Source of the DNA: an uncultured virus (IMG/VR IMGVR_UViG_3300035181_002953)
Taxonomy: Duplodnaviria; Heunggongvirae; Uroviricota; Caudoviricetes
DNA length: 64,000 nucleotides
Direction: 5' to 3' (one strand)
Virus record (IMG/VR): IMGVR_UViG_3300035181_002953
This document shows positions 5,071 through 60,477 of this stretch, piece after piece. Numbering within the stretch: position 1 is the first letter of the stretch; each line of letters begins with the position of its first letter. The position numbers and the translations under genes were made by a program. The notes beneath the pieces are model-generated. The model saw nothing but the letters and a program-made list of their open reading frames with translations. It had not been told where the DNA came from and ran no database searches.

Positions 5071-5625
5071 ATGGTTCGTGGTGAGGGACGTGGCGAAAAG
5101 GCACTCGGTGACCATGTATGGCGTCACGTTCATCCACTTCGCGACCCACGACCAGCGTGTGTCCCCTGGAAAGAGCTTTGCGATGGCCAGAGCGAGGCCC
5201 TCGGTCGCGCCGTGTGGGCTCGCCTGAACATGCCCGGACTCATGCCCGAGGAAGTGCCGGGCGTCCTCAGGGAAGCCATCGCACGCAGGGACCGAGAGCA
5301 CGCCGCGTTCATGGGCCGATTCGACGGCGGGGCCCATTCTCCCGCGGCAAGATGCCTATCAACGGTCCTTGGTTGGTCTTTTTGGCTTCTGCGGCTCGTT
5401 GACCCGCTTTTATTGCCCACGAACCAGCTCGAGCGCCGCTGCGGAGGCCCCTAGGCTTCACACCAGGGCTTTCTACTACTCTTTCCGCTGCGTTTCGCCC
5501 TGTCTTTCTCACAGCGTTGCGTGCTACCGAGCAAGAATCCTCACGCTAGCGAAATCGCCAGCCCTCACACCACAAAGCGCCGAGAAACGAGATGTTCGGC
5601 GGCGCCGAAAGGACCCTCTCACGCC

Positions 5626-6624
5626 ATGATGACCATCCGTCCGCTGAGGAACCAAGTCGTTTTCCGCCGCGACCCGCCTCCGACCCACGTCGGACCCGTC
5701 GAGATCCCCGAGGCCCAGCGGTCCAAGCGGACGCCCACCGCGACCGTGGTGGCCGTGGGGCCGGGTGGTCGGGTGGCCAAGACCCGCCTCCGGCTCGTGG
5801 AGAAGGCCGGTCAGGTCACGAAGGAGACGGTCCGGACGGAGATCGGGCGCGAGGAGCCGACCCTTCTCCGCGTCGGCGACAGGGTGATCGTCCACGAAAT
5901 GGTCGGGTGGCCCCTGCTCGAAGAGGATGGGGTGGTCCTGGAGACCGACGAGGAGCGACTTTTCTACGGACGCCTCACGTCCCGTGGCCCCGAGGCCATC
6001 GGTGATTGGTTGTTTGTCGAGCGCGAGAAGCCCGAGGAGAAGGTCGGCGCGCTCGTCGTCCCCGAGAGCGCGCGCTCGGTGCGATCGATCGTCAAGGTGG
6101 TGAGCGCGGGTCCTGGGCACATGCGAGGGGGCGAGCTCGTAGCCAACCCGTACAAGGTTGGTGATCGGCTTCTGGTGAACGACCACTCGTCCGCCGTGGC
6201 ACCGGTCGACGTGGAGGTGGGCGGCACCAAGCTGACCATCCTGCGCGCATTCGAGGTCATCGCGCGGGTGAACGAGGACGATTCGCTCGAGGCGGAGAAC
6301 GACTTCGTGCTCATCGAGCGAGACCCCCCGGTCGACAAGGTGGGCAGCATCCACGTGGTGCAGTCCATCGCGAACATCCCGTCCACCGGAACGGTCCTGA
6401 GCGTGGGGCCTGGTCTCGTCCTGTTCCACGACATCGCCCTTCGGCCTCACGTGAAGCACGGCGACCGCATTGTCCTCGACGACTGGTGGACGCGCATCGA
6501 CCAGAAGACCCCGCTCCCGCGTGGCTGGAAGCCGGCCAACGTGTCCTTTCGGCACGAGGTGAAGCTCGGCGGGAAGACCTACACGATCGTCCACGACGCA
6601 GACGTGCTCGCCGTCCTGGAGTGA
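5626..6624 (+). CDS. groES: co-chaperonin GroES/Cpn10-like protein with three tandem GroES domains
   Basis: Three repeats of the GroES pattern: IRPLRNQVVF..IPE..VVAVGPG..RVGDRV; AIGDWLFVE..VVPES..VVSAGPG..KVGDRL..EVIARV; AENDFVLIE..GTVLSVGPG..VKHGDRI..KLGGKTYTIVHDADVLAVLE. Confidence 0.88.
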   Translation: MMTIRPLRNQVVFRRDPPPTHVGPVEIPEAQRSKRTPTATVVAVGPGGRVAKTRLRLVEKAGQVTKETVRTEIGREEPTLLRVGDRVIVHEMVGWPLLEEDGVVLETDEERLFYGRLTSRGPEAIGDWLFVEREKPEEKVGALVVPESARSVRSIVKVVSAGPGHMRGGELVANPYKVGDRLLVNDHSSAVAPVDVEVGGTKLTILRAFEVIARVNEDDSLEAENDFVLIERDPPVDKVGSIHVVQSIANIPSTGTVLSVGPGLVLFHDIALRPHVKHGDRIVLDDWWTRIDQKTPLPRGWKPANVSFRHEVKLGGKTYTIVHDADVLAVLE

Positions 6625-10732: not shown

Positions 10733-13700
10733 CCGACATGAAGAAGCGCAAGGGGAACGACCTGCTCAGCAAGGCGAGCCGGGCGCCGCTGCTCGAGGCC
10801 ATCGGCATCTGGGAGATCCGCGGCATCGAAGCCGACGGGCTCATCCGCGGCTTCGCCGTCAACAGCCGCACGGGCTCCGCCATGGCGCTCCCGCCGGCCC
10901 CCTCACGCGAGGCCTTCGTCGCCGGCGCACGGCAGCGGGTGGCGGCGTGACGGCCGCGGGAGCGCCGCGCGCCAAGGCGCCCGGCTTCAAGATGCCGATG
11001 ACGAACGTGGCGTGCCCGCGGTGCCTGCCCCTCGCGCTCGCTCACAAGATCCAACTCGAAAGCGTGCAGCGGCTCCCCGAGGGCGCGTGGGCGCCGCGCT
11101 CGAAGGATCCCGAGTCGAAGCCGTGCTGCATCGACTGCAGCGCCGCCGACCTGCTCGTGCGGATGCAGACCTACCAGCGCGGCGCGAAGAAGGGCGAGCC
11201 CTGGGACGACGACGTGCGCACTGGCCGGGAGTCGATGCTGACGTTCGAGATGGCGCGCATCGCCGTGAGCAACGACCGGTGCGAGCAGTACCGCCTCCCC
11301 GGCGTCCGCATGGGCCTCGTGCTCGCGGGCATCACGAAGCCGAGCGAGCGCGGCGACCTCGAAGAGCAGTACGCGTGGCTCGAGACGCAACCCTGGTACG
11401 CGGAGCGCACCCCGGCATCGACGTCGTGACCACGTAACGGAGAGGACTCGAATGGCGACCAAGAAGCTCGCGCAGCTCGCGCCGACGGCGAAGTACATCG
11501 TCGAGGGACAGCGTGCTTTTTCCTCAAGGGCGGCCTCCAGCTGTCGTCGGGGCGCACGGTGCAGATCGAGGTGTGGCTCGCCGCGCCGGACGACCTCACG
11601 CCGAAAGAGCAGCGGGAGCTCGAGTCGTTCCCGGTCGCCTTTCACGACCTCACGCCGAAGCAGCCGAAGAATCAGGCGAAGGTGGCAACGAAACATCGAA
11701 AGGAAGCCAAAAAATGAGCACGGATCCGCCTCGCGGCCTGATCGAGCCTACGTACTACCCGCCGGCGCCGGCACCGCTGCTCACGCCCGAGCAATCGGTG
11801 CGCGCGATCAACATCCTGCAATCCGCGCACATCAACGGCTCGTGCTCGTTCATGAGCGATCGGGACGCCTACGCCCGCCGGAAGGGGGAGCGCTTCGGGG
11901 ACCGTGGGTGCGCCGAGCAGAACAGCCTCGACTTCGACTGCATGTACTGCGCGGCCGAGAAGCTGCTCACCGAGATCGGGAAGCTGCCCCGGCGCCGGTG
12001 ACTCGCTGAGGTCGCGAACAGGAACACGTCAGGGGATGGAAATCGAGGGAACGATGGGACGAGACGAACAGCGGGGGACGGCAACGTGACCGACCGATAC
12101 AAGGGCTTCATCGTCACGCTGAGCGACGACCTTCGCGACGACGACGCAGCGGCCACCATCGCCGCGATCAAGCAGATCAAGGGCGTCATCGCCGTCAAGC
12201 CCGTCCTCAACGAGGGCATCGGCGACGAGATGGCTCAGGACCGCGTGCGCCACGAGCTATGGGCGAAGGTCCACAAGGCCTTCTTTCCGACGGGTAAATC
12301 ATGAACCGCCGCGTCCTCGCAGCCCTCGTCACGCTCGCCGACCTGCACCGGGCCGAAGAAGACCCGACCGCGCAGCTCGAGATCAGCACGCTCTACGGCC
12401 GCCATGGCGTCGCCCTGCGCGCGCTCGAGGATGCCGACGAAGAGCTCTACCAGTCGCTCGCCAAGCAGCTCTGTGAGAAGCGCGAGACGATCGAAGACGA
12501 CCCGGTCGGCGCCGAGCTGCTCCGCCGCGCGTGCTCGGGAACGCTCCCCTACCAGGTCACCGGCGCGGAAGCCTGCGAGCGGTACGCACACCTGCTCGCG
12601 CCGCGCGTGGCGAAAGGACAGCCGTGAAGAAGAAGCCCTCGGCGAGCCCGAAAAAGACCATGTTCGGCGCCACGAAGAAGCGGCGGGAGCTCGGCGCGCG
12701 CGCCGAGCGCCTCGAGCGCGATGTGAATAGGTGGCGGCAGCGGTTCGAGGACTGCCGCTTGGAAACGTGGAATCAGGCCGCCGAGATGGAGCGTCTCCGC
12801 GGTCGCCTGGTGCAGAAGGAAACGGAGCTCGTCGCCGAGCGCGGGCGCACCTGGTCGCTGGTCGAGAAGGCCCACGCGCTGCAGGGCGCGGTGGATCGCC
12901 AGGACCGCGATCTCTCCCAAGGGAACGAGGTCCTCCGCCGCTACATCCTCGACGAGGCAGCGCGGCAAGAGTCCGTGAATGCCACCGGCGCCACGTTCGT
13001 CGGCCAGATCGCTTCCTACGTCGACCAGGCACGCGCGCTGCTCGAGCGGTGGTGCCGGTTACGCCCGACGTCGAGCTCGCCAAGGTCGCGCCCTTTCCCG
13101 CGTCTTCGAGCTACCGCTCCCGGAGCAGCTGAAGCGGAAGGCGGCGGGCTGGTCGTGGGCGCCGGGCCTGTCGCCCGGGCTCGTGGTGCTCAGCGCGTTC
13201 GGCCTGGTCCGGAAGCCATGAACCCGCGTCGCCGCCGTCGGCTGCGCTTCCAGCGTGCGCATAACCGCCCGTGCTTCTGGTGCGACATGACCGGGACCCG
13301 GCGCGCGAGGCCCTGGTACAACGCGCCGCTTTGCGCCTTTCGCTGCGCGACCTGCAACGGCACCGGCGCCTGCGGGGAGAGCAACTGGATGCCGGGCCAC
13401 TTCATGCTGTCCCAGCAAAACCAGCTGGCACGGTCATTTTTCAAGGCGTACCCGAACGCGCGATCGTTCCGCGCGCCGGTCATCCCGAGGAGGCAAGCAT
13501 GGGCAGTGGCAGCATCATCGTCAGAGGCGTGAAGGCGGTCGTGGACGCGGAGCGGAAGAAGGAGTTCGCGCTCGGTGAGATGGTCATCGAGGACGTCGTC
13601 GACGGCGACTGGCGCGCGGCGACGCTGATGGCCGAGCACCTGTCGTTCGCAAAGGAGCGGCCCGAGGTCCAGGCCGCCTATGGCCCCCTCTGGGCTCGGT

Positions 13701-14520: not shown

Positions 14521-14548
14521 CTGTCCGATAATGCCGATTATCGGACAG
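14521..14548. other. putative tyrosine-recombinase core site (11-6-11): CTGTCCGATAA-TGCCGA-TTATCGGACAG
   Basis: Perfect 11-bp inverted arms around an asymmetric 6-bp spacer in non-coding DNA; Cre-like recombinase elsewhere in the window. Confidence 0.6.
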
Positions 14549-14571: not shown

Positions 14572-14785
14572 GTTACCGGGGGCTCGGCCCCTGGAAGCTG
14601 AGACCGGGGTATCGCGAGTGGCGGTCGCTCGGCCCCTCGAAGCCGAGACAGAATCCGCGCCACCTCACGCCGGCCTTCAAGGCCAGCCTTCACGCCAGCC
14701 TTTGCCAAAGCGCGCTCTTGGCACGCTTATCGCCGAGACCTGCATGTAAACACCAAGCGGGCGCTCGGCCCCTCGAAGCCGAGAC
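14572..14785 (+). CRISPR. degenerate mini-array A (four type V-like repeats ending at 14604, 14649, 14739, 14785)
   Basis: GCTCGGCCCCTGGAAGCTGAGAC, GCTCGGCCCCTCGAAGCCGAGAC, CTTGGCACGCTTATCGCCGAGAC, GCTCGGCCCCTCGAAGCCGAGAC; end-to-end spacing 45, 90 and 46 nt. Confidence 0.7.
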
Positions 14786-14810
14786 TGGGTCGATGGTTCC
14801 TCTGAAAACC

Positions 14811-14836
14811 GCTGAGGACCGGCCGGTAGAGCCGTC
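14811..14836 (+). promoter_or_regulatory. GCTGAG-N16-CGTC motif
   Basis: Exact; ATG 9 nt downstream. Confidence 0.65.
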
Positions 14837-14845
14837 GGAGGGGAC

Positions 14846-15253
14846 ATGGACACCGTGAGCAGCTCGAGCCAGGGGAACGTGAAGTGGACCGCTCGGATGA
14901 TTCGCCGCTCGCGCGGCGCCGTCCGGGGCGTTCTCGCCGAGATGCTCGGTGCCTGGTGCAACGAGCACCGTCAGGCGGACTTCATCGCCCAGCGCGAGAT
15001 CTTCCCCGTCGCGGGCCGAAAGGAGTCCGTGCGCTGGGTGGCGACGTGGGCGTTCTTCGGCCACGGCCCGAGCTGGGGCTGCTGGCCGGGCGATGCCGAG
15101 TATGCGGCGCTTCGGGAGCGGCTCGGCGGTCCTCCGCTCTCGCGGGCCGCGTCGATGGTCGACGAGGCGGCGCGGGAAGAAGGGCTCCGGAAGCGGCGCC
15201 TCGCGCGGACGAAGCGCCGGACCGTCGCGGCGCCTATCACGGTGGGCTGCTGA
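14846..15253 (+). CDS. hypothetical protein flanked by two identical CRISPR-like repeats
   Basis: ORF follows the promoter motif and SD GGAGG; repeats end at 14785 and 15285. Confidence 0.55.
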   Translation: MDTVSSSSQGNVKWTARMIRRSRGAVRGVLAEMLGAWCNEHRQADFIAQREIFPVAGRKESVRWVATWAFFGHGPSWGCWPGDAEYAALRERLGGPPLSRAASMVDEAAREEGLRKRRLARTKRRTVAAPITVGC

Positions 15254-15255
15254 GC

Positions 15256-15285
15256 AGCGGGCGCTCGGCCCCTCGAAGCCGAGAC
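15256..15285 (+). repeat. solo CRISPR-like repeat AGCGGGCGCTCGGCCCCTCGAAGCCGAGAC
   Basis: 30-nt identity with the repeat at 14756-14785. Confidence 0.8.
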
Positions 15286-15315: not shown

Positions 15316-15825
15316 ATGGGAACCAAGACCACCTTGAAGGCTGCGCGGGCGAGCGTGTTCGAGCGCGTGATGGCGCTGCTCGCTCCCGCATTCTACCGGG
15401 AGATCGCGGCCGAGTACGGCGCGACCGTGATCGACCTTGGCGTGCTGGGCGAGGACGTCGCGATGCTGCTCGGGAAGAACCAGGGGCTTGCCATTCTTCC
15501 GCTCGGCCGCATCGTGCTCGGCGCACACGATAGCAAGGCAGAGCAGGACGCCACGTTCTTCCACGAGATGGGGCACGTGATCGACGTGCGGAGCGGAAAG
15601 GTCACGGGGCCGGCGTGGAGCGCGGCCGAGCACTATGCCAATGAGCTGTCCGCGTGGCGAACGGGACTTCGTCTCGCCCGGAAGAAGGGCATCACGTTCT
15701 CGAACGCCGCCCTCGCCAACTGCGACAAGCACCTGATGTCGTACGTACGCGGGCCGATGCTCGAGAAGAAGAAGCCCCGATCGGACATCCTGCGACGCGA
15801 GTTCGGGCGGAAGCGAAAGAAGTGA
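15316..15825 (+). CDS. HEXXH metallopeptidase-like (ImmA/IrrE-like) protein
   Basis: TFFHEMGH...ANELSAW. Confidence 0.6.
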   Translation: MGTKTTLKAARASVFERVMALLAPAFYREIAAEYGATVIDLGVLGEDVAMLLGKNQGLAILPLGRIVLGAHDSKAEQDATFFHEMGHVIDVRSGKVTGPAWSAAEHYANELSAWRTGLRLARKKGITFSNAALANCDKHLMSYVRGPMLEKKKPRSDILRREFGRKRKK

Positions 15826-19520: not shown

Positions 19521-19550
19521 ATGTTGCAATCGCTCGGCATCGGCCGAGAC
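19521..19550 (+). repeat. solo CRISPR-like repeat ATGTTGCAATCGCTCGGCATCGGCCGAGAC
   Basis: Same CTCGGC/GCCGAG stem and GAC end; 5' GTTGCAAT is typical of CRISPR repeats. Confidence 0.7.
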
Positions 19551-19568: not shown

Positions 19569-20195
19569 ATGGAAGAAGAAACGACGTACGTTGCGGCCGA
19601 GGACCACGTGGTGGGCGAGCGGCTTCTAGAGCTGCGGCGGCGCGTCTACAGCTGTATGCGCGACGAGCGCGCGCCCATGTCGCCGAACGTGGCGCTCGCG
19701 CTGATCGACCGGTGCACCGCCCTGATCAACGCGCTCGACAAGGCCGAGGAGCTGGGCGACCTCGTGTGCGAGGCCGCGCAGCTTGCATGGGCAGCGCAGG
19801 GCGATCAGGTCTCCGCGCAGGCATGGGAGAAGAGAGCCACGGAGATCCTGCAGCGCCTCGGCGAGCCGCTGAACTTGGCCGGAAAGATCCCGCAGAACAC
19901 TGCGCCGTCGATGGGGAAGGAATCGAAGACCATGAAGAAGATCATTGCAGGGGGTGTCATCGATTGCGTGGAGCTGACCCCGGACGGGCGGCTCGCGCAA
20001 GTCGAGATCGACTACTCGCGCTCGAACATCGACGATGGGTTCAGTGTCCGGCACGTGCTGATCGTCACCCCGGAGGCGGCCGATGAGCTGGCGTCGCGCT
20101 TTCGGAAGAAGGTCAAGATCACCATCGAGGAGGACGACTCCATCGATCCATGTGATTTCGTCGGCGACATTGCCGCCGAGGAGAGCGACTCGTGA
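19569..20195 (+). CDS. hypothetical protein co-transcribed with the Cas12-like gene (possibly two genes)
   Basis: SD GAGAGG; stop overlaps the GTG of the Cas12-like gene; possible second start MKKIIAGG near 19932. Confidence 0.6.
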   Translation: MEEETTYVAAEDHVVGERLLELRRRVYSCMRDERAPMSPNVALALIDRCTALINALDKAEELGDLVCEAAQLAWAAQGDQVSAQAWEKRATEILQRLGEPLNLAGKIPQNTAPSMGKESKTMKKIIAGGVIDCVELTPDGRLAQVEIDYSRSNIDDGFSVRHVLIVTPEAADELASRFRKKVKITIEEDDSIDPCDFVGDIAAEESDS

Positions 20196-22045
20196 ACCGC
20201 GTGTTCCGATATGGGCTCCTCTCGCCCGACGCCGAGAAGATCGACGCCATCGAGAGCCAGGCGACGCTACTCCACCGCTACCGCAACATGCTCATCCAGA
20301 TCGAGCGCGCGCGCCGCGCCGCGCTGCGTGAGCTCGAGGGCGGCGGCGGCGGCATTCCTGCCCTCCAGGCGGCTGCCGACGAGGCGAAGCGCTTCGAGGA
20401 CGACGCGGAGAAGGCCGTGAAGGCGGCCCGGAAGAAGACCAGGTCGCGCTCGGAGACCGAGGACGCGCGCGCCGTGCTCCGGGTGCTCCGCATCCGCCGG
20501 AGCAAGGCCGTCGGGGAGCTCAAGCAGGCGATGGCCCTCATCCGGCAGGACCCGGAGATCGCCGCGGCCCGCAAGGCCATCAACGAGCGGTCGGAGATCC
20601 TGCGCAAGGGCGCCCGCGGCGAGTCGGGCTGCTACTGGGGCAGCTACCTGCTCCAGGAAAACGCGATGGAGGCGAGCCAGAAGATGCCCCTCTACGACAA
20701 GACGATGCCGAACGACCCTCGGTTCAAGTCCGCGAGCAAGCGCGCGCAGTTCGGCGTGCTCATCCAGAACGGCATCACGGTGAAAGAGCTCTTCGCCGGC
20801 GCCAGCTCGAAGATTCGCATCGATGCCCCGTGCGAGGAGGCAGCGCATTCCGGGAAGCGACGCGACCGCCGGCACCACGCCGGCAAGATCCACCTGCGCA
20901 TTGCCTCCGACGACAACGCGAAGCCGGTGTGGGTCTCGTGGCCGATCATCATGCACCGGCCGATTCCCGAAGGTTCTCTGATCAAGAGCGCCGTCGTCAC
21001 GCGCTCGACCATCGGTCCGCGCACGCAGTGGTCTCTGGCCCTCAGCGTCGACGTCCCGGACGAGCTCGCGCGCGGCTGCGGCGAGGGCGCGGTGGCCATC
21101 GACATCGGCTGGCGCATCATCGGGAACGATCTGCGCGTCGCCACGTGGCGCGACCAGGAAGGCCACACGGGCGATCTCCGCCTCTCCGAGAAGGTCATCA
21201 AGCAGCTGCGGAAGCCCGAAGAGCTGCGCTCGACCCGGGACCAGAACTTCGACGCCGCCCGCGACAAGCTCGGCGCCTGGATCAAGGCGCAGCTCGAGCT
21301 CGGAGCCATCCCCGCCTGGCTACTCGACCGCGCCAAGAGCATCGCGCAGTGGCGCTCGCAGGACCGTCTCGCAGCCGTCGCGCTCTTCTGGAAGACGAAT
21401 CGCTTCGACGGCGACACGGATGCCTACGAGGCGCTCGAGGGCTGGCGCTACCACGACTGGCACCTGTGGAAGTGGGAGACCTCGCAGCGGATCAAGGCAC
21501 TTCGGCACCGCCGGGAGATCTACCGCATCTTCGCCGCCGACCTGTCGCGCCGGTACAGCACTCTCATCGTCGAGGACTTCGACCTCAGCAAGATGTCGAA
21601 GAAGCAACCGACGGAGGGAGTGGGCGAGAACCAGAATGCCAGGTCGAACCGGTTCCTCGCCGCGACGAGCGAGCTTCGCATCGTCCTGTCCGATGCGTTT
21701 CATGCGCGCGGCGGCGAGATGATCAAGGTCGGAGCGATGGCGACCACCATCGAGTGCCACGTCTGCCACCACGTCGAGACGTTCGACAAGGCTTCGTCCG
21801 TCGACCGGGCGGATCCGTGCCCGAAGTGCGGCGCCCAGTGGGATCAGGACGTCAACGCGGCGATCAACCTGCTCGCCCGCTGGGACGCGATCAAGGATAA
21901 GCCGCGCGCGGAGAAGAAGCCCCGCGAGTCGCGGTGGGCGAAGAAGAAGCGCACGAAGGCCGAGAAGTATGCGGCGGAGCTGCAGAAGCAAGCGGGAGCT
22001 CATCCCTCGGCGCCCGACGAGCACAGCGAACAGCCGTCCCCCTGA
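20192..22045 (+). CDS. cas12m: Cas12m-like (type V-M/V-U1) RNA-guided effector, TnpB superfamily, RuvC triad intact
   Basis: 617 aa. N-terminal VFRYGL..HRYRN and long coiled-coil REC; YWGSY; HRPIPEGSLIKSAVVTR; RuvC-I AIDIGWR (D304); WRSQDRLAAVALFWK; HRREIYRIFAADL; RuvC-II IVEDFDL (E461); Zn finger CHVC/CPKC; RuvC-III WDQDVNAA (D553). Collinear with Cas12m blocks recalled from memory; adjacent matching repeats. Confidence 0.82.
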   Translation: MNRVFRYGLLSPDAEKIDAIESQATLLHRYRNMLIQIERARRAALRELEGGGGGIPALQAAADEAKRFEDDAEKAVKAARKKTRSRSETEDARAVLRVLRIRRSKAVGELKQAMALIRQDPEIAAARKAINERSEILRKGARGESGCYWGSYLLQENAMEASQKMPLYDKTMPNDPRFKSASKRAQFGVLIQNGITVKELFAGASSKIRIDAPCEEAAHSGKRRDRRHHAGKIHLRIASDDNAKPVWVSWPIIMHRPIPEGSLIKSAVVTRSTIGPRTQWSLALSVDVPDELARGCGEGAVAIDIGWRIIGNDLRVATWRDQEGHTGDLRLSEKVIKQLRKPEELRSTRDQNFDAARDKLGAWIKAQLELGAIPAWLLDRAKSIAQWRSQDRLAAVALFWKTNRFDGDTDAYEALEGWRYHDWHLWKWETSQRIKALRHRREIYRIFAADLSRRYSTLIVEDFDLSKMSKKQPTEGVGENQNARSNRFLAATSELRIVLSDAFHARGGEMIKVGAMATTIECHVCHHVETFDKASSVDRADPCPKCGAQWDQDVNAAINLLARWDAIKDKPRAEKKPRESRWAKKKRTKAEKYAAELQKQAGAHPSAPDEHSEQPSP

Positions 22046-22246
22046 TCCGCGCTCGGCCGGCTCTCACCGAGACAAGCAGGACAATCGCTCACACGCGCTC
22101 GGCCGCCCTTCTGCCGAGACACCAAGAGCACGGACCTATCCTCTCACCATACGAGCACCCTATGAACGAACGCCACTCGACCATCATGATGCAGACGCGA
22201 AACGGCCTGGAAGTTCCGTGTCTCGGCCGAGCTTCGGGCCAAGGAC
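22044..22246 (+). CRISPR. degenerate mini-array directly downstream of cas12m (repeats ending at 22073, 22120 and a divergent copy at 22246)
   Basis: GCGCTCGGCCGGCTCTCACCGAGAC; GCGCTCGGCCGCCCTTCTGCCGAGAC; GTTCCGTGTCTCGGCCGAGCTTCGGGCCAAGGAC. Confidence 0.65.
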
Positions 22247-22252
22247 GGCCCC

Positions 22253-22480
22253 GTGTTCGACGTGGAGCATGGGATCCCCATGGCGCGCACGACGTTCCTG
22301 AGATGGGACGTGTTCACCGAGGACTACCGGCACCTCCTCGTCGCCTCGGGCCCGGTACCGGACAAGCCCAGCGCCATCCGCATCGACATCACGCAGACCA
22401 CGATCACGGAGGACATGGATGTCGTGAGAACGGTTCCCGTGACGCACGGGATCATCCGCTTTTTCGTGTATGAGTTCTAG
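22253..22480 (+). CDS. small hypothetical protein embedded between repeats
   Basis: 75-aa ORF; the next repeat begins at its stop codon. Confidence 0.5.
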   Translation: MFDVEHGIPMARTTFLRWDVFTEDYRHLLVASGPVPDKPSAIRIDITQTTITEDMDVVRTVPVTHGIIRFFVYEF

Positions 22481-22675
22481 TTCCGCGCTCGGCCGGCTCC
22501 GCTGCCGAGACCACATCGAACGTGCCCGCTCGGCGGCCTCACGGCCGAGACTCATGGTCAGCGTTCCGACGAGATTCGATTCCTGATCCGCACAACCACC
22601 GCTCGGCGTATCTCTAGAGCCGAGACCTCAGCGCGCTTCACCCGCAATGCCAGCTCGATGGTTTCTCGTCGAGAC
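22480..22675 (+). CRISPR. degenerate mini-array (repeats ending at 22511, 22551, 22626, 22675)
   Basis: GCTCGGC-CGGCTCCGCT-GCCGAGAC; GCTCGGC-GGCCTCACG-GCCGAGAC; GCTCGGC-GTATCTCTAGA-GCCGAGAC; GCTCGAT-GGTTTCTC-GTCGAGAC (compensatory stem). Confidence 0.7.
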
Positions 22676-22694: not shown

Positions 22695-22961
22695 ATGTCG
22701 CAACGCGAACTGCTCACGATCCTTCGCAAGCTGACGCCGGGGCAGCGAGCCGTGCTCATGGCCGCCGGGCAGATGGACCACCCGGGCGTCGTCCAGGGCG
22801 ACATGGATGCAGCTCGGAAGCTCGCGAAGGCGGGGCTCGTGGCGCTCGATCCCAGCGGGCCTACTGGCGACGGCCGCTGGAAGGTCGACCTCACCGATCT
22901 AGGCCGAGAAGCGGCGGCGCTAGCGACCGAAGCAGTTCGTGTTCTCCCCCGCAAGCGCTGA
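22695..22961 (+). CDS. winged-helix-like small protein
   Basis: LTPGQRAVL...ARKLAKAGLV...WKVDLTDLGREAA. Confidence 0.6.
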   Translation: MSQRELLTILRKLTPGQRAVLMAAGQMDHPGVVQGDMDAARKLAKAGLVALDPSGPTGDGRWKVDLTDLGREAAALATEAVRVLPRKR

Positions 22962-43058: not shown

Positions 43059-44399
43059 TCACCACTTCGCATCCGCCGTCTCGAGCAGCAACATTTCCTT
43101 CTCGCCGTGCGGATCCACAGGCTTTCGCGCCTTCTTTTCCGCGCGCGAGAGCGCATTCAGGTCGATCGCATCCTCGGTGAGGCGCACGTAGTCACCCTCG
43201 CGCACGATGCCGTCGAGGCCGCCCAGCTCGAGCATGTCGCCGTAGCCCTGGCCGACGTAGATGGGCTCGCCCTCGTCGCGCGCCATCTGGAGCGCGAGCA
43301 TCGTCGCCATCTCGCGGAACGCCGGCTCGTAGTCGATCCGGTAGAGGAACGTGCCGACGGGCCTGCTGTCCCGGAAGAACCCGTACGCGTAGATCATCGA
43401 CTCATCGATCTCGTCGGCGGTGAGCGCCTTCGCGTCGTAGACGACGAACGAGATCCCCGGGTCGATGAGCACCAGCACCTTCGCCTTCGCCTTCGGCGCG
43501 CGCGGCTCGGGCAGCTCCACCGGCGCCCGGTGGCCCCTGAGGCCGCCGAGGATGTCGCGGATGCGTGCGGCCGTGATCGTGCCGGCGCGGAGAAGGTCGG
43601 AGTACGTCCCGTTCGCGATGAGCTCGCGGACGCGGTTCTCCCACATGCGGAGGGCGGACTTCTGCCCGGCCGGCGTGAAGCCGCCCGACTGGAACTTCGG
43701 GTTGTACCCGTACCAGATCTCGCCGAGCACCTGCCCGAGCCGCTTCCCCTTGTACTCGTCCGCGACGAGGATCAGCGTCGCGCCCCACTCGTTCTCCGCC
43801 CGGGCGACCGTGCGGCCGGCGGCGTCGAGGATGGCGAGGCCGGTGCCGCGGCCCGGCTCCGGCTCGCGGGCCGCGCGGATCTCGAGCGGCTCGCCGTCGA
43901 CCTGGATGCGGCGGATGAGGTACGGGAAGTCCTCGAGATTCATCGCGCGCGGGTCGAGGGCGCGCGCGAGCGGGGCGCGGAGGTACTTGACGACCCTCTT
44001 CTCGGTGACCGGCACCGGCGTCCACTGCTGGTCCTGACGCCTGTGGTCGCGCGTGTACTCCAGGGCGTAGCGCTCGCCCCGCCAGCGAGGTTCGTGGTAG
44101 AGCACGCCGTCGAGGACGACGGCCACCGGCTTCTCCACCTCGTCGGCGTTCTTCTCGTAGAGGACGTAGCCGCCGTCGTGCGTCGAGTAGATGCGCGCGC
44201 CCGAGTGCGTCACGCCGATGGGACTCTGCACGAACTGGTTGAGCGACTCGAGGCTCGCCGAGTAGGCGTCACTCGCGTGCGACTTCCCGCTCGGGTTCCG
44301 GTACTCGAGGAACTCGTCGGCCGTCATGAGGCCGATCTCGCCGGGTCGAATGATCACCGGCGCCGCGGGGTTCGGCCGGCGAAGCCGCATCTCAGTCAT
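43059..44399 (-). CDS. protein with internal GNAT-like acetyltransferase module and N-terminal RRPNP motif
   Basis: LILVADEYKGKRLGQVL...SGGFTPAG resembles GNAT motif A/B. Confidence 0.6.
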   Translation of the reverse strand: MTEMRLRRPNPAAPVIIRPGEIGLMTADEFLEYRNPSGKSHASDAYSASLESLNQFVQSPIGVTHSGARIYSTHDGGYVLYEKNADEVEKPVAVVLDGVLYHEPRWRGERYALEYTRDHRRQDQQWTPVPVTEKRVVKYLRAPLARALDPRAMNLEDFPYLIRRIQVDGEPLEIRAAREPEPGRGTGLAILDAAGRTVARAENEWGATLILVADEYKGKRLGQVLGEIWYGYNPKFQSGGFTPAGQKSALRMWENRVRELIANGTYSDLLRAGTITAARIRDILGGLRGHRAPVELPEPRAPKAKAKVLVLIDPGISFVVYDAKALTADEIDESMIYAYGFFRDSRPVGTFLYRIDYEPAFREMATMLALQMARDEGEPIYVGQGYGDMLELGGLDGIVREGDYVRLTEDAIDLNALSRAEKKARKPVDPHGEKEMLLLETADAKW

Positions 44400-44784
44400 C
44401 GTCGCCCGTGTCGTCGTCCTCGTCGTCGAGCTCACCGAACTCGATCACCACCGCTCGGCCGCCGTCGTCGGGCGTGAGGCGAAAATGCGCAGCGTCCTCG
44501 TCCATGTCCTCGCCGTTGACGAGCATGGCGTAGGCCATGCGCGCGGCTTCCTCGGGGCTGTCTGCCTCGATCTCCGCGTCCCACCGAACCTTGTAGATCG
44601 CCATGACGTCAAGTCGCCTTCCCGGGGACGGGAGCCGGATCGAGCCCGTGGATGTCGAGCACCCAGGACAGCTCGAGATCACGCGGCGGCTCCTCGGGGA
44701 GCGACTCGTGCCTCAGATGCGTCGGCGGGCGTGACGGCGGACAGCTGGCGCGCGCGACGTCGCGTGCGACCTCGATGCCGTTCA

Positions 44785-54369: not shown

Positions 54370-56148
54370 TCAGCGGCGGATCGCGACGGTCCAGTTGGCG
54401 AAGGCGCCGAAGCTCGAGAGGTTCACGGTCACGTTCTTCTGGTTCACGCAGATGACCTCGTCAGGGATCTGCTCCTTGCCGAGGTCGTCGAACACGCGGA
54501 CGTGGACCCACCGCGTCGAGAGGCCGTGCGAGATCGTGAAGCTCGAGGGGCCGAGGGCCGTGAGAGACTGCACGAACGTCCCCTCGACCAGGAACGTCGG
54601 GACGGCGCCGGCGAGGATCGCGCCGCCGGGCACCCCCGGCTGGTCGTAGTCGAGCGATGCCTCACCATCGAGGCTGATGCGCCCCGACGCCGTGGGCGAG
54701 TACGCGAGCGTCTTGCCGAGGATCTGCGCGTAGTCGTAGGCCTCGATGTCGAGGTTCGCGCCCGGGCCTGCCGCGACCACGAAGCCGGACCCGAGCGTGG
54801 CGTGGTCGTGCAGCGTCACGCGGACGCTCGCGCCCGGCGCCACGGTCAGCAGCGGCGCGGTACCGAGATTCTGGAGGCCGCCGTTGCCCGTGAAGCGGTA
54901 GTCGTTCGTGAAGCTGCCCGTCGTCAGGATGGGCGCGCCCGTCGAGTGACCCCGGACGTAGATGTCCTCGAAGTCGAAGAACCCGCTCAGGTTCACGTTG
55001 TCGGCGCAGTCGAGGATCGTGACGCCGGTGCCGAAGTAGCGGGTCCCGAAGACCGCCGTGGGGCCGCCCGTGGCGTAGACGCCCGCGGGAATCTGAACGG
55101 CGCCGGGCGTCGGCGAGAGCGAGGCGTCGACCCAGATGACACGCGGCCCCTTCTGCGCCTGGTTCGCCGCCGCGCAGAGCGACGCGAGGTCCGCGAACAC
55201 GCGCCCCGTGGGGTTCGGCGTGCCGGGGGCGAGGACGAAGACCTCGGCGCGGCCCACGAGGTTCGCAAGGGCCGCCTGCGCCTCGGGCTGCGCGCCAGCG
55301 AACCAACTCGGCTGGTTCCAGAGGTTCGCGATCGGGTTCGGATCGATCGAGAGGAGCTCGGCGATGTCCTGCCGCTGGATGATGAAGTTCGACGCGGGGA
55401 CGATGTTCTGATTTCGGCCGATCTGCGCCGACGTCGAGACGGTGTTGACGATGACCTGCCCACCGCCCGTGAACACCTGGTCGTCGACGTTGCTCGTCTC
55501 GCCCGCGACCACCACCGTGAAGCTGCCCGCGTCCGCCTGAACGACGGGCAGGCCAGCGTTTCGGAGGCCGCCGCCGAGCTCGGCGACGATGAAGAGCTGG
55601 CCGCCTGCCGGGTTGTGGAAGAACGGCGCGCCGGCCGTCGCATCCGTCGCGAACGACGCGCCCTTCGAGGCGAAGATCAGGTTGTTGAACGGCCCAACGG
55701 GCGCCGTGAACACCGGCTGCGAGCTCTTGCTCAGTAGAACGATCTGCTGCGTGACCGTGCCGATGGCCGTGAAGACGGCTCCGTCGAGCACGTCCACCAC
55801 GATCGGATTGTTCGTGATCTCGTAGCCGGACAGGATCATCTGCGAGGTGTCGAACGACCCCGCGGTGATGACCGGCTGGCCCAGGCTGTCATCGATGATG
55901 AGCAGGCAGAACTCGCCGAGCGAGTGCGCCGCCGCGTAGGCCGAGGCCCACGTCGGGTAGATGTTCCCGATCTGCCCCGGGATGCCCTCCCGGTACACCA
56001 CGACGTTCGTGGCTCCGCCGGGCGGGATGATGACCTTCTTCTGGAGGAGACGACAGATCTCGTAGAGAAGGTCGTACAGCGGCACGCCAGGCCCGCCGAT
56101 AGTGGCCCCCGTACGGAAGAGTTGGGGAAACGGGTTCGGCGCTGCCAT
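54370..56148 (-). CDS. tail fibre/spike-like protein, paralog 3 (duplicated central module)
   Basis: YPTWASAYAAA and VFADLASLCAAA modules; C-terminal ISHGLS module. Confidence 0.65.
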   Translation of the reverse strand: MAAPNPFPQLFRTGATIGGPGVPLYDLLYEICRLLQKKVIIPPGGATNVVVYREGIPGQIGNIYPTWASAYAAAHSLGEFCLLIIDDSLGQPVITAGSFDTSQMILSGYEITNNPIVVDVLDGAVFTAIGTVTQQIVLLSKSSQPVFTAPVGPFNNLIFASKGASFATDATAGAPFFHNPAGGQLFIVAELGGGLRNAGLPVVQADAGSFTVVVAGETSNVDDQVFTGGGQVIVNTVSTSAQIGRNQNIVPASNFIIQRQDIAELLSIDPNPIANLWNQPSWFAGAQPEAQAALANLVGRAEVFVLAPGTPNPTGRVFADLASLCAAANQAQKGPRVIWVDASLSPTPGAVQIPAGVYATGGPTAVFGTRYFGTGVTILDCADNVNLSGFFDFEDIYVRGHSTGAPILTTGSFTNDYRFTGNGGLQNLGTAPLLTVAPGASVRVTLHDHATLGSGFVVAAGPGANLDIEAYDYAQILGKTLAYSPTASGRISLDGEASLDYDQPGVPGGAILAGAVPTFLVEGTFVQSLTALGPSSFTISHGLSTRWVHVRVFDDLGKEQIPDEVICVNQKNVTVNLSSFGAFANWTVAIRR

Positions 56149-57397
56149 TTTGTGCAGCGTACACCCAAAGTGGCACAGCTTCTAACGGTTTAGGACTCAT
56201 CACCCCCTTCGTCGCGTTGCGACTAAACAGAGTTTTCGTGCGGATATACCCCTGCGCCACCTTCGGATCCTTGTGACCGGTCTGTGCCATGATCTGCGTG
56301 AGATCGGCACCGCTCTCGTGCGCCTGCGTGGCGAACCCGGCGCGCAGGCTGTGGCCGGACACCTTCGTCGGGTCGAGCCCCGCGCGCTCGGCGAGGTCCT
56401 TGACCAGGCGGGCGACGTACCGGTCGGAGAGGCGAGTCCCCGGCACGAGGCCGTCCTTGGTCGCGTTGAGGCGCGGGAAAAGGGGCAGCTCGGATCCGAT
56501 GTGCCCGAGGTCCGCCAGCGCTGCAATCCATGCGCGGAGGGACTCGACGCAGCACACGGGGCCGCCGGTCGGCTCGATGCCCTTCTCGAAGCCCTCGCCC
56601 ACCTGGTCGGTCTTGCTGCGGCGCAGGGTGAGGATGATGCGGTCGCCCGCGATGAAGCGCACGTCGGCGAGGTTCAGCCTGACGACTTCGCCGCGCCGGA
56701 AGGCGCCGAACCACGTGGTCAGTGCGAGCGCCCGCTTCTCGGTGGCGGCAAGGCCGTCGCCCTGGAGGACGGCGAGCATCTTCTCGAGGTCGTCGGCTAG
56801 GATCGGGTTCTTCTTGTCCGGGCGGACGCCGAGGCGCCGGCGGATGCTCTCCTTCGCCTCGACGAGCTCGCGCGCCGTCTTGTCGAGGCTGTGGCCGGCG
56901 ATCAGGTTGTGCCGGGCCACGGCGGCCGTCACCTGCTCGATCGTCGAGACCTTTTTCCCCTCGGCGGCGAGGTGCGTGATGTAGCCGGCGAGCACCAGCG
57001 GCGGCGTCGGGAGCGTCGGGAGGTCGCGCGACTCGGCCCAGGCGCAGAACCCCTTCCAGGCTCGGGCGTAGGCCTTGACCGTGTTATCAGCTCGAGAGCT
57101 TCCCACGTAGTCGGCGACGCGCTCGGCGATCTTCCGGTGCTCGATGGCCATCTCGGCCGCGCGCGTGGCGAGCGCATCGGCCGGCCGCTCGTTTCTCAGG
57201 AAGTGCCCGCACGCCTGGCACATCGCCATGTCGTCGTTCGGCCGCGGCACCGGGCACTCGCAGACGATCGTGGCCTGTTTCGTCCAGTCCCCCAGGACCC
57301 GGCCGCAACTGCACCCGCCGCGCACCGGGTCGATGATCCGGTGCGTTTCGTGTCCCTTCCGTGCGATCGGTGCGGTGGGGTCCGGAGCTGCCATCAC
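55889..57397 (-). CDS. Cre-like tyrosine recombinase
   Basis: ADNTVKAY..W..FCAW N-domain; catalytic R (AFRRGE), K (RSKTDQ), HxxR (GHSLRAG), H (QTGH), Y (QGYIR). The last ~100 codons overlap the next gene, so the true end may be near 56190. Confidence 0.9.
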   Translation of the reverse strand: MMAAPDPTAPIARKGHETHRIIDPVRGGCSCGRVLGDWTKQATIVCECPVPRPNDDMAMCQACGHFLRNERPADALATRAAEMAIEHRKIAERVADYVGSSRADNTVKAYARAWKGFCAWAESRDLPTLPTPPLVLAGYITHLAAEGKKVSTIEQVTAAVARHNLIAGHSLDKTARELVEAKESIRRRLGVRPDKKNPILADDLEKMLAVLQGDGLAATEKRALALTTWFGAFRRGEVVRLNLADVRFIAGDRIILTLRRSKTDQVGEGFEKGIEPTGGPVCCVESLRAWIAALADLGHIGSELPLFPRLNATKDGLVPGTRLSDRYVARLVKDLAERAGLDPTKVSGHSLRAGFATQAHESGADLTQIMAQTGHKDPKVAQGYIRTKTLFSRNATKGVMSPKPLEAVPLWVYAAQNGSAEPVSPTLPYGGHYRRAWRAAVRPSLRDLSSPPEEGHHPARRSHERRGVPGGHPGADREHLPDVGLGLRGGALARRVLPAHHR

Positions 57398-58316: not shown

Positions 58317-60477
58317 CTATCGCGCGACGCGGTGGAAGATCTCCGGCATCGACGGTGCCGCGGGGGCGCGCGCTGCCGGCGGCTTGACGCCGCTCCCCGG
58401 CACCTCGACGCAGTCGTACGATCGGTCGCCGCAGAACAGCGCCTTGGCGCCCCTGCGCTTCTGGATCGCCATGATCACCATGCGGTTCAGGCGGGGTTTC
58501 TTCGGAAGACGAACCGTCTCGACCAGGCCGCTCTTGGTCCAGCGGACCTTCCCTCGCCGCTTCGCGACTTCGTAGAGCTCGGCGTGCGTCATCACGGCGT
58601 TGCCTCGGGCGCGGCGGACGCGACGGCGGGCGGGTGAAACGGACAGGCCTGCCCGGAGCGCGCGCGGAGCTCGCACACCTTGCACGGACCGTCGTCGAGC
58701 TTCCAGTGCTCGGAGACCTTCAGGACCTCGATCTCGGCCTTCTGCAGCGCATCGTCGACGAGACGCGAGAAGACGCGGATGGCCGGGTCCTTGTTCTCGC
58801 GCTCGATCGCCTTCTTCATGCCGAACGATCGGAGAACGCGGCGGGTGTCCGTCATCGACGGCCGCTTCTCCTTTTTCAGCCCGAGCACGCGGCTCATCGT
58901 GAGGCGCCAGTGCTTCTGACCATCCTCCTCGACGATCGACGAGATGACCCACACGATCCCGTCGCTCCACACGCTGCCCGACCGCGTCGTCCCCTCGAAC
59001 AGGTCCGGCAGGCGCTTCCACGTGTCCTCTCCCTCGCCCGGCGATGCCACCGGCTTCAGCTCGGACAGCTTTTTCAGCACCGCCGGAAGCCGGTCCCATT
59101 CCTCTTTCGTCGTCGCGCGCATCACTCTCTCCCCTCGCGTTCGTACCACTCGTCCCGGATCGCGGTGAACTTGCGAACCTCGCCCCGGTAGATAACCCAG
59201 ATGTTCCAGCCCACGCCAGCGATCCACGCGCCGGCCGCGATGACCAGGGTCGCAATCACCGGCGACGGCCAGATCGCCACGCCAACCGTCATGACCGAAA
59301 TGCCCATCGCTACGAAGGACATGCCCGTCGTCGTATTGTCCCGGCACCGGCCGAGCGCGGCCCGAACGTCGCTGATGGTCTGCCCGCGCATGGCGAGGCG
59401 CTCCGGCTCGAGGGGCGTCGGCTGCTCGCCGAGCCGACGGCGTCGATCCAGGCTCGTCGTGCCGAGCAGGGAACCGAGCCTCACGACGCCGCCCTGTTGC
59501 AGGTGGCGATCTTCTCCTGCAGGTCCTTCACGAGATCGGCGGCCGTCTCGGCCGAGAGCACCGAGATCGACGGCTCCCGCTTCCCGTGCGGATCGACCGA
59601 CACGATCATGATGAACTTTCGGCCGTGGGCGTCCCACCCGATGTCCGTGCGCAAGAGCGCGCACTCGTCGGTGCTCATGACCATATTTCCGTCGCCCGTC
59701 GGCCTCATGACTCACCCATTCTACGACGAGCCTCGGCCGTCGCCTTCGCCCGCGTGATGCCGAGGCATCCGCGGAAGTAGTCGCACTCTTCCTCGGTCCA
59801 CTTGTACCGCCGGCGCGCCTCGACGACGAATCGGGCCGCGTCGTCAGCCTCGTCGGGCGTAGGGGGCGGCGGGCGCGGGATGTCCTCGTCGTCGAAGCCC
59901 GAGCTGTCCCGAGTCGAAGGTGAGATGTCTCGGGACGGAGGCACCCGAGCAGGCATCGAAGCAACGACGGACGTGTCTCGCGAATCAGGCACGCGAGCGG
60001 GCGTTTCAGCGGTCTCTTCCTCCCCCTTTTCGATGGGGCAGCCACGGCAGTGCCCCCGCTCGTCGAAGTTGTCGCAGCTCGGGAAGGCGTCGAATCCCTG
60101 CGCCCGCGCCTCGGCGCACATCCCCCGGAACTCGGCGACGCCGATGATGCGACCGTTGCGGCGAATGCCGGGGAGGACGTGCCGGCGGAGGTACGAGTCG
60201 TCGTGGCGGTCCACGTCGACCGCCATGCACATGTGGATCGTGTACGGAGGCTCGGGCGGCGGAACTACTGCAGAACGTCCAGGCGCCACGTCCAGACCAG
60301 CATCAGCATCCCCGGCTTGTACGGCACCGCCGCTGTTCCGATGAGCTCCCACCTGTCGGGATCGGGCACGTCGTCGGGGCGGATCGGGTTGTCCGGCACC
60401 ATCGTCACGCCCACCGCGTCCGAGTCCCGACGCGACGTCACGAACCCGATCGTCGTCCGGTACTCGCTCAGACTCAT
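58317..60477 (-). other. small hypothetical genes (58317-58592, 58592-59122, 59122-59391, 59481-59708, 59705-60268, 60265-60477)
   Basis: Coupled co-oriented ORFs; boundaries approximate. Confidence 0.5.

Follow-up and report, generated by a model that had tools for sequence, protein, structure and literature searches.

What does a phage do with a CRISPR effector whose RuvC site is intact, when the genome that carries it has short repeats around the gene and no adaptation genes in sight? The question is raised by a 64,000-nucleotide stretch of DNA from an uncultured tailed virus (IMG/VR record IMGVR_UViG_3300035181_002953), referred to here as the window; the parent contig is up to 77.8 kb long, and about 13.8 kb of it lie outside. 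A first-pass annotation, made from the sequence alone, had assigned an open reading frame (ORF) in the window to the Cas12m lineage, and had proposed that the protein may have kept nuclease activity and may be an intermediate between TnpB and Cas12m. We find that the ORF is a full-length type V-M Cas12m, and that it is accompanied by short guide units of Cas12m type. We think that the two probably make up a working V-M system without an adaptation module, in which a protein-RNA complex binds and silences DNA.

The gene is as follows.

20192–22045, + strand: cas12m (type V-M effector), 617 amino acids, GTG start, RuvC residues D304/E461/D553, zinc-ribbon cysteines C522/C525/C543/C546

The motifs reported by the first-pass annotation can be read from the 617-residue translation as claimed: AVAIDIGWR (D304), TLIVEDFDL (E461), CHVC at 522–525, CPKC at 543–546, and WDQDVNAA (D553). 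The GC content of the three codon positions (0.65/0.47/0.91) is typical of real genes in the window. When we searched all PDB chains with phmmer, the top match was 23vw_A (E 1.5e-78, residues 7–562), which is deposited as "CRISPR-associated DNA-binding protein Cas12m" and has identical D, E, and D residues in the alignment. Lower-ranked matches were 23vu (9.5e-27), 8pm4 (1.2e-19), 8hhl (5.2e-19), and 8hio (about 5e-19); a literature search found no paper describing 23vu or 23vw. The PADLOC Cas12u1 model matched residues 3–565 (E 1.9e-101), and BLASTP against the Cas12m of Allomeiothermus silvanus plasmid pMESIL02 (MsCas12m) gave 33% identity (E 2e-71), with D304 aligned to D274, the residue mutated in published work on that protein (PMC11013384). 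The nearest non-self protein in a set of 5.8 billion proteins was 46% identical. An AlphaFold2 model built from 35 sequences (pLDDT 88.2, pTM 0.76) has four long N-terminal helices within residues 14–145, and the top four Foldseek matches to it were all Cas12m structures (TMq 0.75, 0.73, 0.71, and 0.64 to 8hhl, 8pm4, 8hio, and 8hhm, respectively). Cas12f, TnpB, and Fanzor ranked below these at a TMq of about 0.21–0.41. The Cas12m lineage proposed for the protein is thus borne out by phmmer, PADLOC, Foldseek, and BLASTP.

We take the protein to be a Cas12m and not an INTERMEDIATE, on the grounds of the full-length Cas12m match and the Cas12m fold. Pfam recognized the zinc-ribbon TNB domain alone (Cas12f1-like_TNB, 3.9e-10), and the NCBIfam TnpB models matched at about 3e-10 over residues 437–599 only, with scores far below their cut-offs (NF040570, 39.9 bits against 100; NF038280, 39.7 bits against 350). 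Together with the length of the protein (617 amino acids, where TnpB has about 400) and the absence of any TnpA family from the 46 window ORFs scanned with Pfam, these scores place it outside the TnpB proteins of IS200/IS605 and IS607. The comparison with profiles and structures that the first-pass annotation had called for therefore came down on the Cas12m side (TM 0.71–0.75, against 0.33–0.39 for TnpB), and the proposed intermediate status does not stand, because the Cas12m match spans the whole protein and the TnpB match is partial and low scoring.

The statement that the window holds no cas1, cas2, or tnpA agrees with our scans: no PADLOC model for Cas1, Cas2, or Cas4 matched any of 81 candidate ORFs, and the Pfam scan of 46 ORFs found no Cas1 or Cas2 family either, the ORF set being drawn from a codon-position GC filter rather than an exhaustive six-frame scan. 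The effector gene is under purifying selection. A single-protein search found no close relative in viral contigs, and one among metagenome contigs (L073, 2.5 kb), whose Cas12m is 85% identical and retains EDFDL, WDQD, and both CxxC pairs; the ratio of nonsynonymous to synonymous substitution rates (dN/dS) between the two copies is 0.185 over 229 codons.

We counted eight copies of the pattern CTCGGC-N6-14-CCGAGAC in the window, all on the + strand, against an expectation of 0.12; none of 100 shuffled sequences reached eight. Five of the copies lie 3' of the cas12m stop codon at 22052–22626, and a sixth, degenerate copy there ends at 22675. We built a covariance model on 21 units, 12 of them from the window and 9 from L073. 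At E about 2e-3 or better it detected 14 window units, namely the 12 used for training and 2 further ones on the minus strand; a weaker match (E 0.01) was excluded. Rfam at gathering scores reported three tRNAs only, and no CRISPR-DR family. The units are arranged as follows.

22047–22120, + strand: mini-array of R1 (22047–22073) and R2 (22093–22120) with a 19-nt spacer, starting 2 nt past the cas12m stop codon
22483–22675, + strand: R3 (22483–22511), R4 (22524–22551), R5 (22597–22626), and R6 (22649–22675), with spacers of 12, 45, and 22 nt
14578–14785, + strand: second array, located 5.4 kb upstream of cas12m and made up of Ra (14578–14604), Rb (14623–14649), Rc (14710–14739, bulged stem), and Rd (14759–14785), spaced by 18, 60, and 19 nt
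15259–15285, + strand: solitary unit Re, with the ATG of a 169-amino-acid ORF (15316–15825) at +31
19528–19550, + strand: solitary unit Rf, with a short 4-nt loop and the ATG of a 208-amino-acid ORF at +19
59927–60002, − strand: weaker units Rm1 (59975–60002) and Rm2 (59927–59954), E about 1e-3, with a 20-nt spacer

The repeats immediately 3' of cas12m had been noticed before, and R6 ends exactly where the earlier account placed their end, at 22675. That account was incomplete, as it missed five units at 14578–15285, one at 19528–19550, and the two minus-strand units at 59927–60002, which lie within a block of minus-strand genes and have the stems CTCGCG/CGCGAG (Rm1) and CTCGGG/CCCGAG (Rm2). 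The 14 units occupy five sites (R1–R6 counted as one), and all of them are intergenic and in the sense orientation of the surrounding genes. They are 23–30 nt long and unlike one another; the internal spacers (18, 60, 19, 19, 12, 45, 22, and 20 nt) are mostly 18–22 nt, and the unit-to-unit distance within clusters is 40–90 nt. A regular V-M array, with repeats of about 36 nt and a period of about 72, is not what we find. Five units have a gene start within 61 nt; in the window, genes begin after terminal or solitary units at +19 (Rf), +20 (R6, ATG at 22695), +31 (Re), and +61 (Rd), so that for Rf and R6 the ribosome-binding site (RBS) and the ATG fall inside the guide segment of roughly 20 nt.

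All units share one plan: 3 nt, a 2-nt linker (mostly CG), a 6-base stem arm, a loop that begins with 3 nt complementary to the first three (the pseudoknot partner), the return arm, and AC, the tail of the unit ending in GAGAC. Across the 21 units, 92.2% of the cells pair, compared with 78.7 ± 1.9 after shuffling (0/500 as high), and pairing falls to 25%–45% when the partners are slid against each other. Two-sided changes are seen at all three pseudoknot pairs and at one stem pair, as in the pseudoknots GGG/CCC, CCG/CGG, GCC/GGC, and CCT/AGG and the stems CTCGGC/GCCGAG versus CTCGAC/GTCGAG, and these compensatory changes support the fold. Of the 14 window units, 7 have all three pseudoknot pairs, 6 have two of the three, and 1 has none. 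We found the same geometry in the canonical repeats of relatives: of 41 distinct sequences, 31 have a fully paired pseudoknot, and the mean over all is 2.61 of 3 pairs, against 1.86 ± 0.10 in shuffled repeats (0/2000 as high) and 1.98 or less at other offsets.

This geometry agrees with the pairs that a preprint reports for the CRISPR RNA (crRNA) of PmCas12m (−28 to −26 with −17 to −15, and −23 to −20 with −6 to −3; optimal guide, 17 nt), and at the MsCas12m locus, too, the repeats finish with a similar hairpin and GAGAC. Covariation, canonical repeats, and the MsCas12m hairpin are therefore in line with the claim of the first-pass annotation that the repeats have the architecture of a Cas12m crRNA. 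The canonical 36-nt repeat begins with a 5' third that the window units do not have; it shows a GTNGCAA-like start in the MsCas12m locus and in the related loci L074, L029, and L003. According to the published account of MsCas12m, a repeat portion of about 30 nt is retained in the mature crRNA (PMC11013384). Judged by sequence, the units correspond to this mature-crRNA core of stem and pseudoknot.

The comparison with L073 indicates how such arrays may change. In L073, nine units are packed between the cas12m stop codon and the conserved next gene, whose ATG lies about 17 nt past the last unit, with no ORF between them. Three distal units and the first 12–13 nt of two guides are common to L073 and the window, and the proximal units and guides differ. 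The window has in addition two ORFs that lie between units.

22253–22480, + strand: 75-amino-acid ORF between R2 and R3, third-position GC 0.89, no family matched, absent from L073
14846–15253, + strand: 135-amino-acid ORF of unknown family, flanked by identical 30-nt direct repeats that contain Rd and Re

Because of these two ORFs, and given the shared and unshared units, the comparison points to a turnover that would proceed by recombination between units rather than by Cas1-Cas2 insertion. The segment at 14756–15285 (+ strand), in which the 135-amino-acid ORF stands between the identical 30-nt repeats, resembles a gene cassette captured between repeats. Upstream of the 75-amino-acid ORF, at 22220–22237 on the − strand, the stem arms occur as an inverted copy that has no loop, one arm abutting the other; it is a weak match to the model (15.2 bits, E 0.08). 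About 30 nt upstream of Ra, a low-GC gap contains a perfect palindrome with a 12-bp stem (CTGTCCGATAAT / ATTATCGGACAG, 4-nt loop) at 14521–14548, which might serve as an operator or as a terminator for the minus strand. Four public DNA runs, from sediment and microbial-mat metagenomes, contain near-identical copies, and two of the four may be the source of the sequence; no RNA run is listed with them. Within the arrays the copies differ at one position only: the contig of one run has A for G at 14616, inside the 18-nt guide that separates Ra from Rb.

More distant relatives are numerous. A profile scan of IMG/VR found 72 loci with relatives of 25%–41% identity, and further matches came from 20 plasmid records and from 26 bacterial contigs or contigs of metagenome-assembled genomes. 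The single GenBank phage record matched, Virus Rctr197k (KX853510.1, 197 kb, deposited as originating from an enrichment culture), has a full-length relative at 112411–114168 (33% identity, E 5e-80) that is annotated only as "similar to transposase." With a crude detector of unit spacing, 71 of 98 loci showed three or more units, and their median spacing was 68–78 nt in 54 loci, less than 68 nt in 11, and more than 78 nt in 6; among these last are L005, L006, and L008, in which the units are really about 48 nt apart and the stems are unlike one another and covary. In 11 of the 46 viral loci with at least three like units, at least one extra copy of the 3' 10-mer of the unit lies far from the array, and many far copies are found only in L060 and L061 (6 and 8, respectively). 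These two are large viral contigs (56% GC) of an unrelated viral lineage, with a Cas12m 27% identical to that of the window. Full units are distributed over at least 20 kb there (1610–20250 in L061); among them are a mini-array that lies just upstream of cas12m and solitary units that precede an RBS and ATG by 19 and 44 nt. Judging by the sequences of these loci, at least two further viral lineages with Cas12m have similar arrays. At 11850–13060 in the viral contig L003, several Cas12m arrays adjoin one another, with the stem variants TGCAGC, CGCGAC, CTCCGC, and CCCGGT; one of these arrays is regular, with 28-nt repeats and a 61-nt period.

In the explanation that we favor, cas12m would be cotranscribed with short guide units (on the + strand between cas12m and the units, we found no terminator-like site). 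Each unit would supply the 23–30-nt part of a Cas12m repeat that belongs to the mature crRNA, and the guide would follow it. By analogy with the D-E-D orthologues that have been tested, the complex would bind double-stranded DNA that is flanked by a protospacer-adjacent motif (PAM) and is complementary to about 17–20 nt of the guide, and, without cutting it, would block its transcription or replication. The complex would probably be aimed at rival mobile elements or at genes of the host. As there is no cas1 or cas2, the guides would be inherited rather than acquired, and the arrays would change by duplication, deletion, recombination, and compensatory drift. Change of this kind would account for repeats that differ from one another, for spacers that are short and uneven, for ORFs lying between units, and for units having spread into other operons.

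Several observations weigh against this explanation. No guide found a target in the window, IMG/VR, or GenBank-phage searches. Within the window, 18-nt guides with up to four mismatches and 12- or 14-nt seeds with up to one or two mismatches gave chance-level matches only. In IMG/VR, the 19-mer that follows Rc has one exact match, in contig L104 (55% GC, 59 kb), which is about the chance level (by a rough estimate, 0.6 expected); of 23 guides, no other matched L104 at three mismatches or fewer, the Rc guide was not found in the genome G001, and the guides after R1 (19-mer) and R4 (20-mer) had no match in IMG/VR. A blastn search of GenBank phages with both array regions (E up to 10) gave weak matches only, the best at 6e-2 and 8e-1, which were not compared with the guide positions. 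A scan with the sigma-70 consensus found no promoter-like site around either array. The array is not a regular CRISPR array, and one spacer, at 12 nt, is too short to act as a guide, because the published seed requirement is 12–14 nt. The units lack the 5' part of the repeat where processing has been mapped, and their maturation may therefore differ or fail. Finally, the conservation of the D-E-D triad (in 30 of 35 aligned sequences, see below) suggests that the site has kept some role for which binding alone does not account.

The triad bears directly on the proposal that the phage protein is an active RNA-guided DNA nuclease or nickase with which the phage cuts its targets. The three carboxylates and the zinc ribbon are all present and under purifying selection. 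We aligned the protein with 34 of its 71 non-self homologues (E 1e-10 or better), and the three triad columns contained D in 30, N in 3, A in 1, and H in 1; E in 32, D in 2, and A in 1; and D in 34 and A in 1. D-E-D is thus the norm in this branch of Cas12m. It is also one of the configurations in print (HEK/HQK, HDD, DED/NED, and DND; PMC10442227). Omura et al. describe four clades of Cas12m, two of which (clades 3 and 4) include D-E-D and, as they word it, "may facilitate" two-metal DNA hydrolysis (PMC10442227). The premise from which the first-pass annotation started, that Cas12m has a degenerate RuvC site, accordingly fits the H-D-D clade but not clades 3 and 4. What decides us against cutting is the behavior of the proteins that have been assayed. 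Bigelyte et al. report that four D-E-D, two H-D-D, and two N-D-D Cas12m proteins had no double-stranded DNA nuclease activity, that the tested proteins bind double-stranded DNA in a PAM-dependent manner, and that pre-crRNA processing by MsCas12m survives the D274A substitution (PMC11013384). Conversion of HDD to DED did not restore cleavage by Cas12m2, a result given as "data not shown" (PMC10442227), and the closest solved relative, 23vw_A, has the same aligned triad and is deposited as a DNA-binding protein. Because four D-E-D orthologues bind and do not cut, the intact triad is no sign of retained nuclease activity, and we regard cutting by the phage protein as unlikely.

Other explanations accept the binding protein and assign the units another role. 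The dispersed and solitary units might act on the phage's own transcripts, with Cas12m gripping a scaffold in the 5' untranslated region so as to process the transcript, stabilize it, or block its translation, and thereby time phage gene expression. The sense-strand, intergenic position of all 14 units suits this idea, as do the gene starts that follow Rf, R6, Re, and Rd (in the cases of Rf and R6 with guides that span the RBS and ATG), the start codon close behind the last unit of L073, and the solitary units ahead of start codons in L060 and L061. However, where genes are packed as tightly as in a phage genome, a start codon is close to any intergenic element, and every array has its last repeat followed by the next gene; in the literature searched, as far as the consulted text extends, no RNA-level activity of Cas12m beyond pre-crRNA processing is reported. 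We consider self-regulation of this kind improbable. Much less probable still is a decoy role, in which the units would mimic the repeats of a host Cas12m and soak up or redirect the host effector. Viral solitary units and short degenerate mini-arrays are reported to act in this way (PMC10651486; bioRxiv 10.1101/2024.10.29.618823), but here an intact cas12m adjoins the units, whereas such solitary units (Racr) are described as "not associated with cas genes" (PMC10651486), and V-M is not among the types that the preprint lists for the mini-arrays (Cracr; bioRxiv 10.1101/2024.10.29.618823). We give equally little credence to the view that the array, lacking adaptation genes, is an eroding and nonworking remnant. 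Its uneven spacing, the 12-nt spacer, the bulged stem of Rc, the 4-nt loop of Rf, and the ORFs inside the arrays could all be taken as signs of decay, but the dN/dS of cas12m is low, compensatory changes keep the stem and the pseudoknot intact between units and between the two phages, and the layout recurs in separate lineages.

A working, binding-only V-M system remains the explanation that we prefer, and it allows an extension that is a long shot in our estimation: a noncutting Cas12m might serve as a hard-wired programmable regulator through mature-crRNA-core units placed in phage operons, including solitary guides over an RBS and start codon. If this were so, one protein would silence outside DNA and would also time or gate the phage's own genes, or alternatively would exclude close relatives that have no unit at that site, and, as the layout recurs in at least two further viral Cas12m lineages, phages in general would be using type V-M in this way. 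That units have spread into operons raises the question of whether phages use a binding-only CRISPR effector for gene regulation rather than for defense. The units also illustrate how little RNA a natural Cas12m guide unit may need. With a scaffold of 27–30 nt and many guides of 18–22 nt, the tightest pairs take up about 45–49 nt per guide, compared with about 72, and the units can differ from one another and yet keep their fold through compensatory changes. They may therefore offer a natural template for compact, recombination-resistant multiplex guide arrays in Cas12m silencing and base editing.

The surroundings of the locus look like those of a phage. The following features were located.

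19569–20195, + strand: 208-amino-acid ORF of unknown family, translationally coupled to cas12m
5521–6621, + strand: 367-amino-acid ORF whose C-terminal 100 residues are Cpn10 (GroES; E 2.6e-25), with an overlapping minus-strand candidate ORF
43062–44435, − strand: 458-amino-acid protein of phrog_29287 (E 1.5e-97), 35%–36% identical to hypothetical proteins of Atu_ph07 and Salicola phage SCTP-2
45633–46044, − strand: four tRNA genes (Leu-CAG, Leu-GAG, Tyr-GTA, and Leu-CAA), three of which Rfam confirms
55892–57397: tyrosine integrase

The stop codon of the 208-amino-acid ORF overlaps the GTG start of cas12m by four bases (GTGA). No homologue of this ORF stands beside Cas12m in about 100 other loci, and when eight neighboring ORFs were compared by tblastn with all the relatives' loci that we fetched, partners were found in L073 only, apart from one unrelated match in L033. 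Pfam identified an SLT lysozyme domain, next to a 939-amino-acid ORF, and a sigma-70 region 4 protein; a deoxynucleoside monophosphate phosphatase was also identified. The phrog_29287 protein is common to the jumbo phages Atu_ph07 and SCTP-2, and two minus-strand proteins have nearest Atlas clusters that are viral or tail beta-helix, which we treat as leads only. No terminase, portal, or capsid protein was named among the annotated window ORFs. From its sequence features, the carrier looks like a tailed-phage-like element of roughly 78 kb, and the phage origin given in the first-pass annotation is upheld by the tRNAs, the integrase, the SLT lysozyme domain, the tail beta-helix-like protein, and the PHROG matches. 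When 19.9 kb of the window was compared with 401 genomes of the phylum of G001, no prophage was found; the matches were mostly at the tRNA level, at about 80% identity, with a few other short, weak ones, and they gave no host signal that would bear on the myxobacterial type of phage named in the first-pass annotation.

How does this locus compare with known systems? It shares with MsCas12m of pMESIL02, and with 23vw_A, homology over the full length, the positions of the D/E/D and CxxC residues, the fold, the hairpin plus GAGAC, and the absence of cas1 and cas2. It differs in its array, as MsCas12m has regular repeats of roughly 36 nt with a period of about 72–73 nt, whereas the window has units of 23–30 nt that are mutually unlike, with spacers of 12–60 nt, at five sites. 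Even so, the repeats of the MsCas12m locus (4010–4560 in L108, plasmid pMESIL02) differ from copy to copy in loop and stem, and repeat heterogeneity is therefore not peculiar to the phage copies. Compared with the omega-RNA nucleases of the TnpB and IS200/IS605 group, the window protein has the same RuvC and zinc-ribbon core, but it is 617 amino acids long with the long recognition-lobe (REC) helices of Cas12m, its RNA would be a short repeat rather than an omega RNA, and no TnpA was found.

The viral units known as Cracr and Racr are likewise short, degenerate, repeat-derived, and single or stacked in phage genomes, and are reported to give guide-like RNAs for binding without cutting (bioRxiv 10.1101/2024.10.29.618823; PMC10651486). 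According to these reports, however, they borrow a Cas protein of the host and are described for types I, V-A, and others, not for V-M, whereas the window phage supplies its own effector, and neither a cas promoter nor a toxin gene was found to contain a target. Cracr arrays combine degenerate repeats with short spacers partly complementary to a cas or toxin promoter; the window has degenerate repeats and short spacers, and no partial or full guide match turned up within it. Racr units mimic host repeats and lie away from cas genes, and the units described here lie beside and around the phage's own cas12m.

A published parallel is MvCas12m of myxophage MV-1, which a preprint describes as a 610-amino-acid protein with D305/E463/D555, an eight-spacer array, and no adaptation genes, and which its authors call the first Cas12m in a bacteriophage (bioRxiv 10.64898/2026.09.14.751636). 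It resembles the window system, on that description, in being phage borne and in its D-E-D triad, adjacent array, and lack of adaptation genes. L074 is probably the MV-1 contig, since the contig number, the eight spacers, and a similar match length agree; its protein is 40% identical to that of the window, and its array has the canonical form, in which nine identical repeats of 36 nt recur with a period of 72. V-M systems of phages and prophages are already in print (PMC11656645; PMC12607003; and the 2026 myxophage preprint): a 2024 review places them on plasmids and "some prophages," and viral effectors from a landfill virome are reported to cluster with Cas12m/V-U1 (PMC12607003). A phage-borne Cas12m with D-E-D is thus not new. 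In the literature searched, we found no description of compact, unlike, and dispersed V-M guide units. It is in this array architecture, built around an effector of known type, that the novelty of the locus lies.

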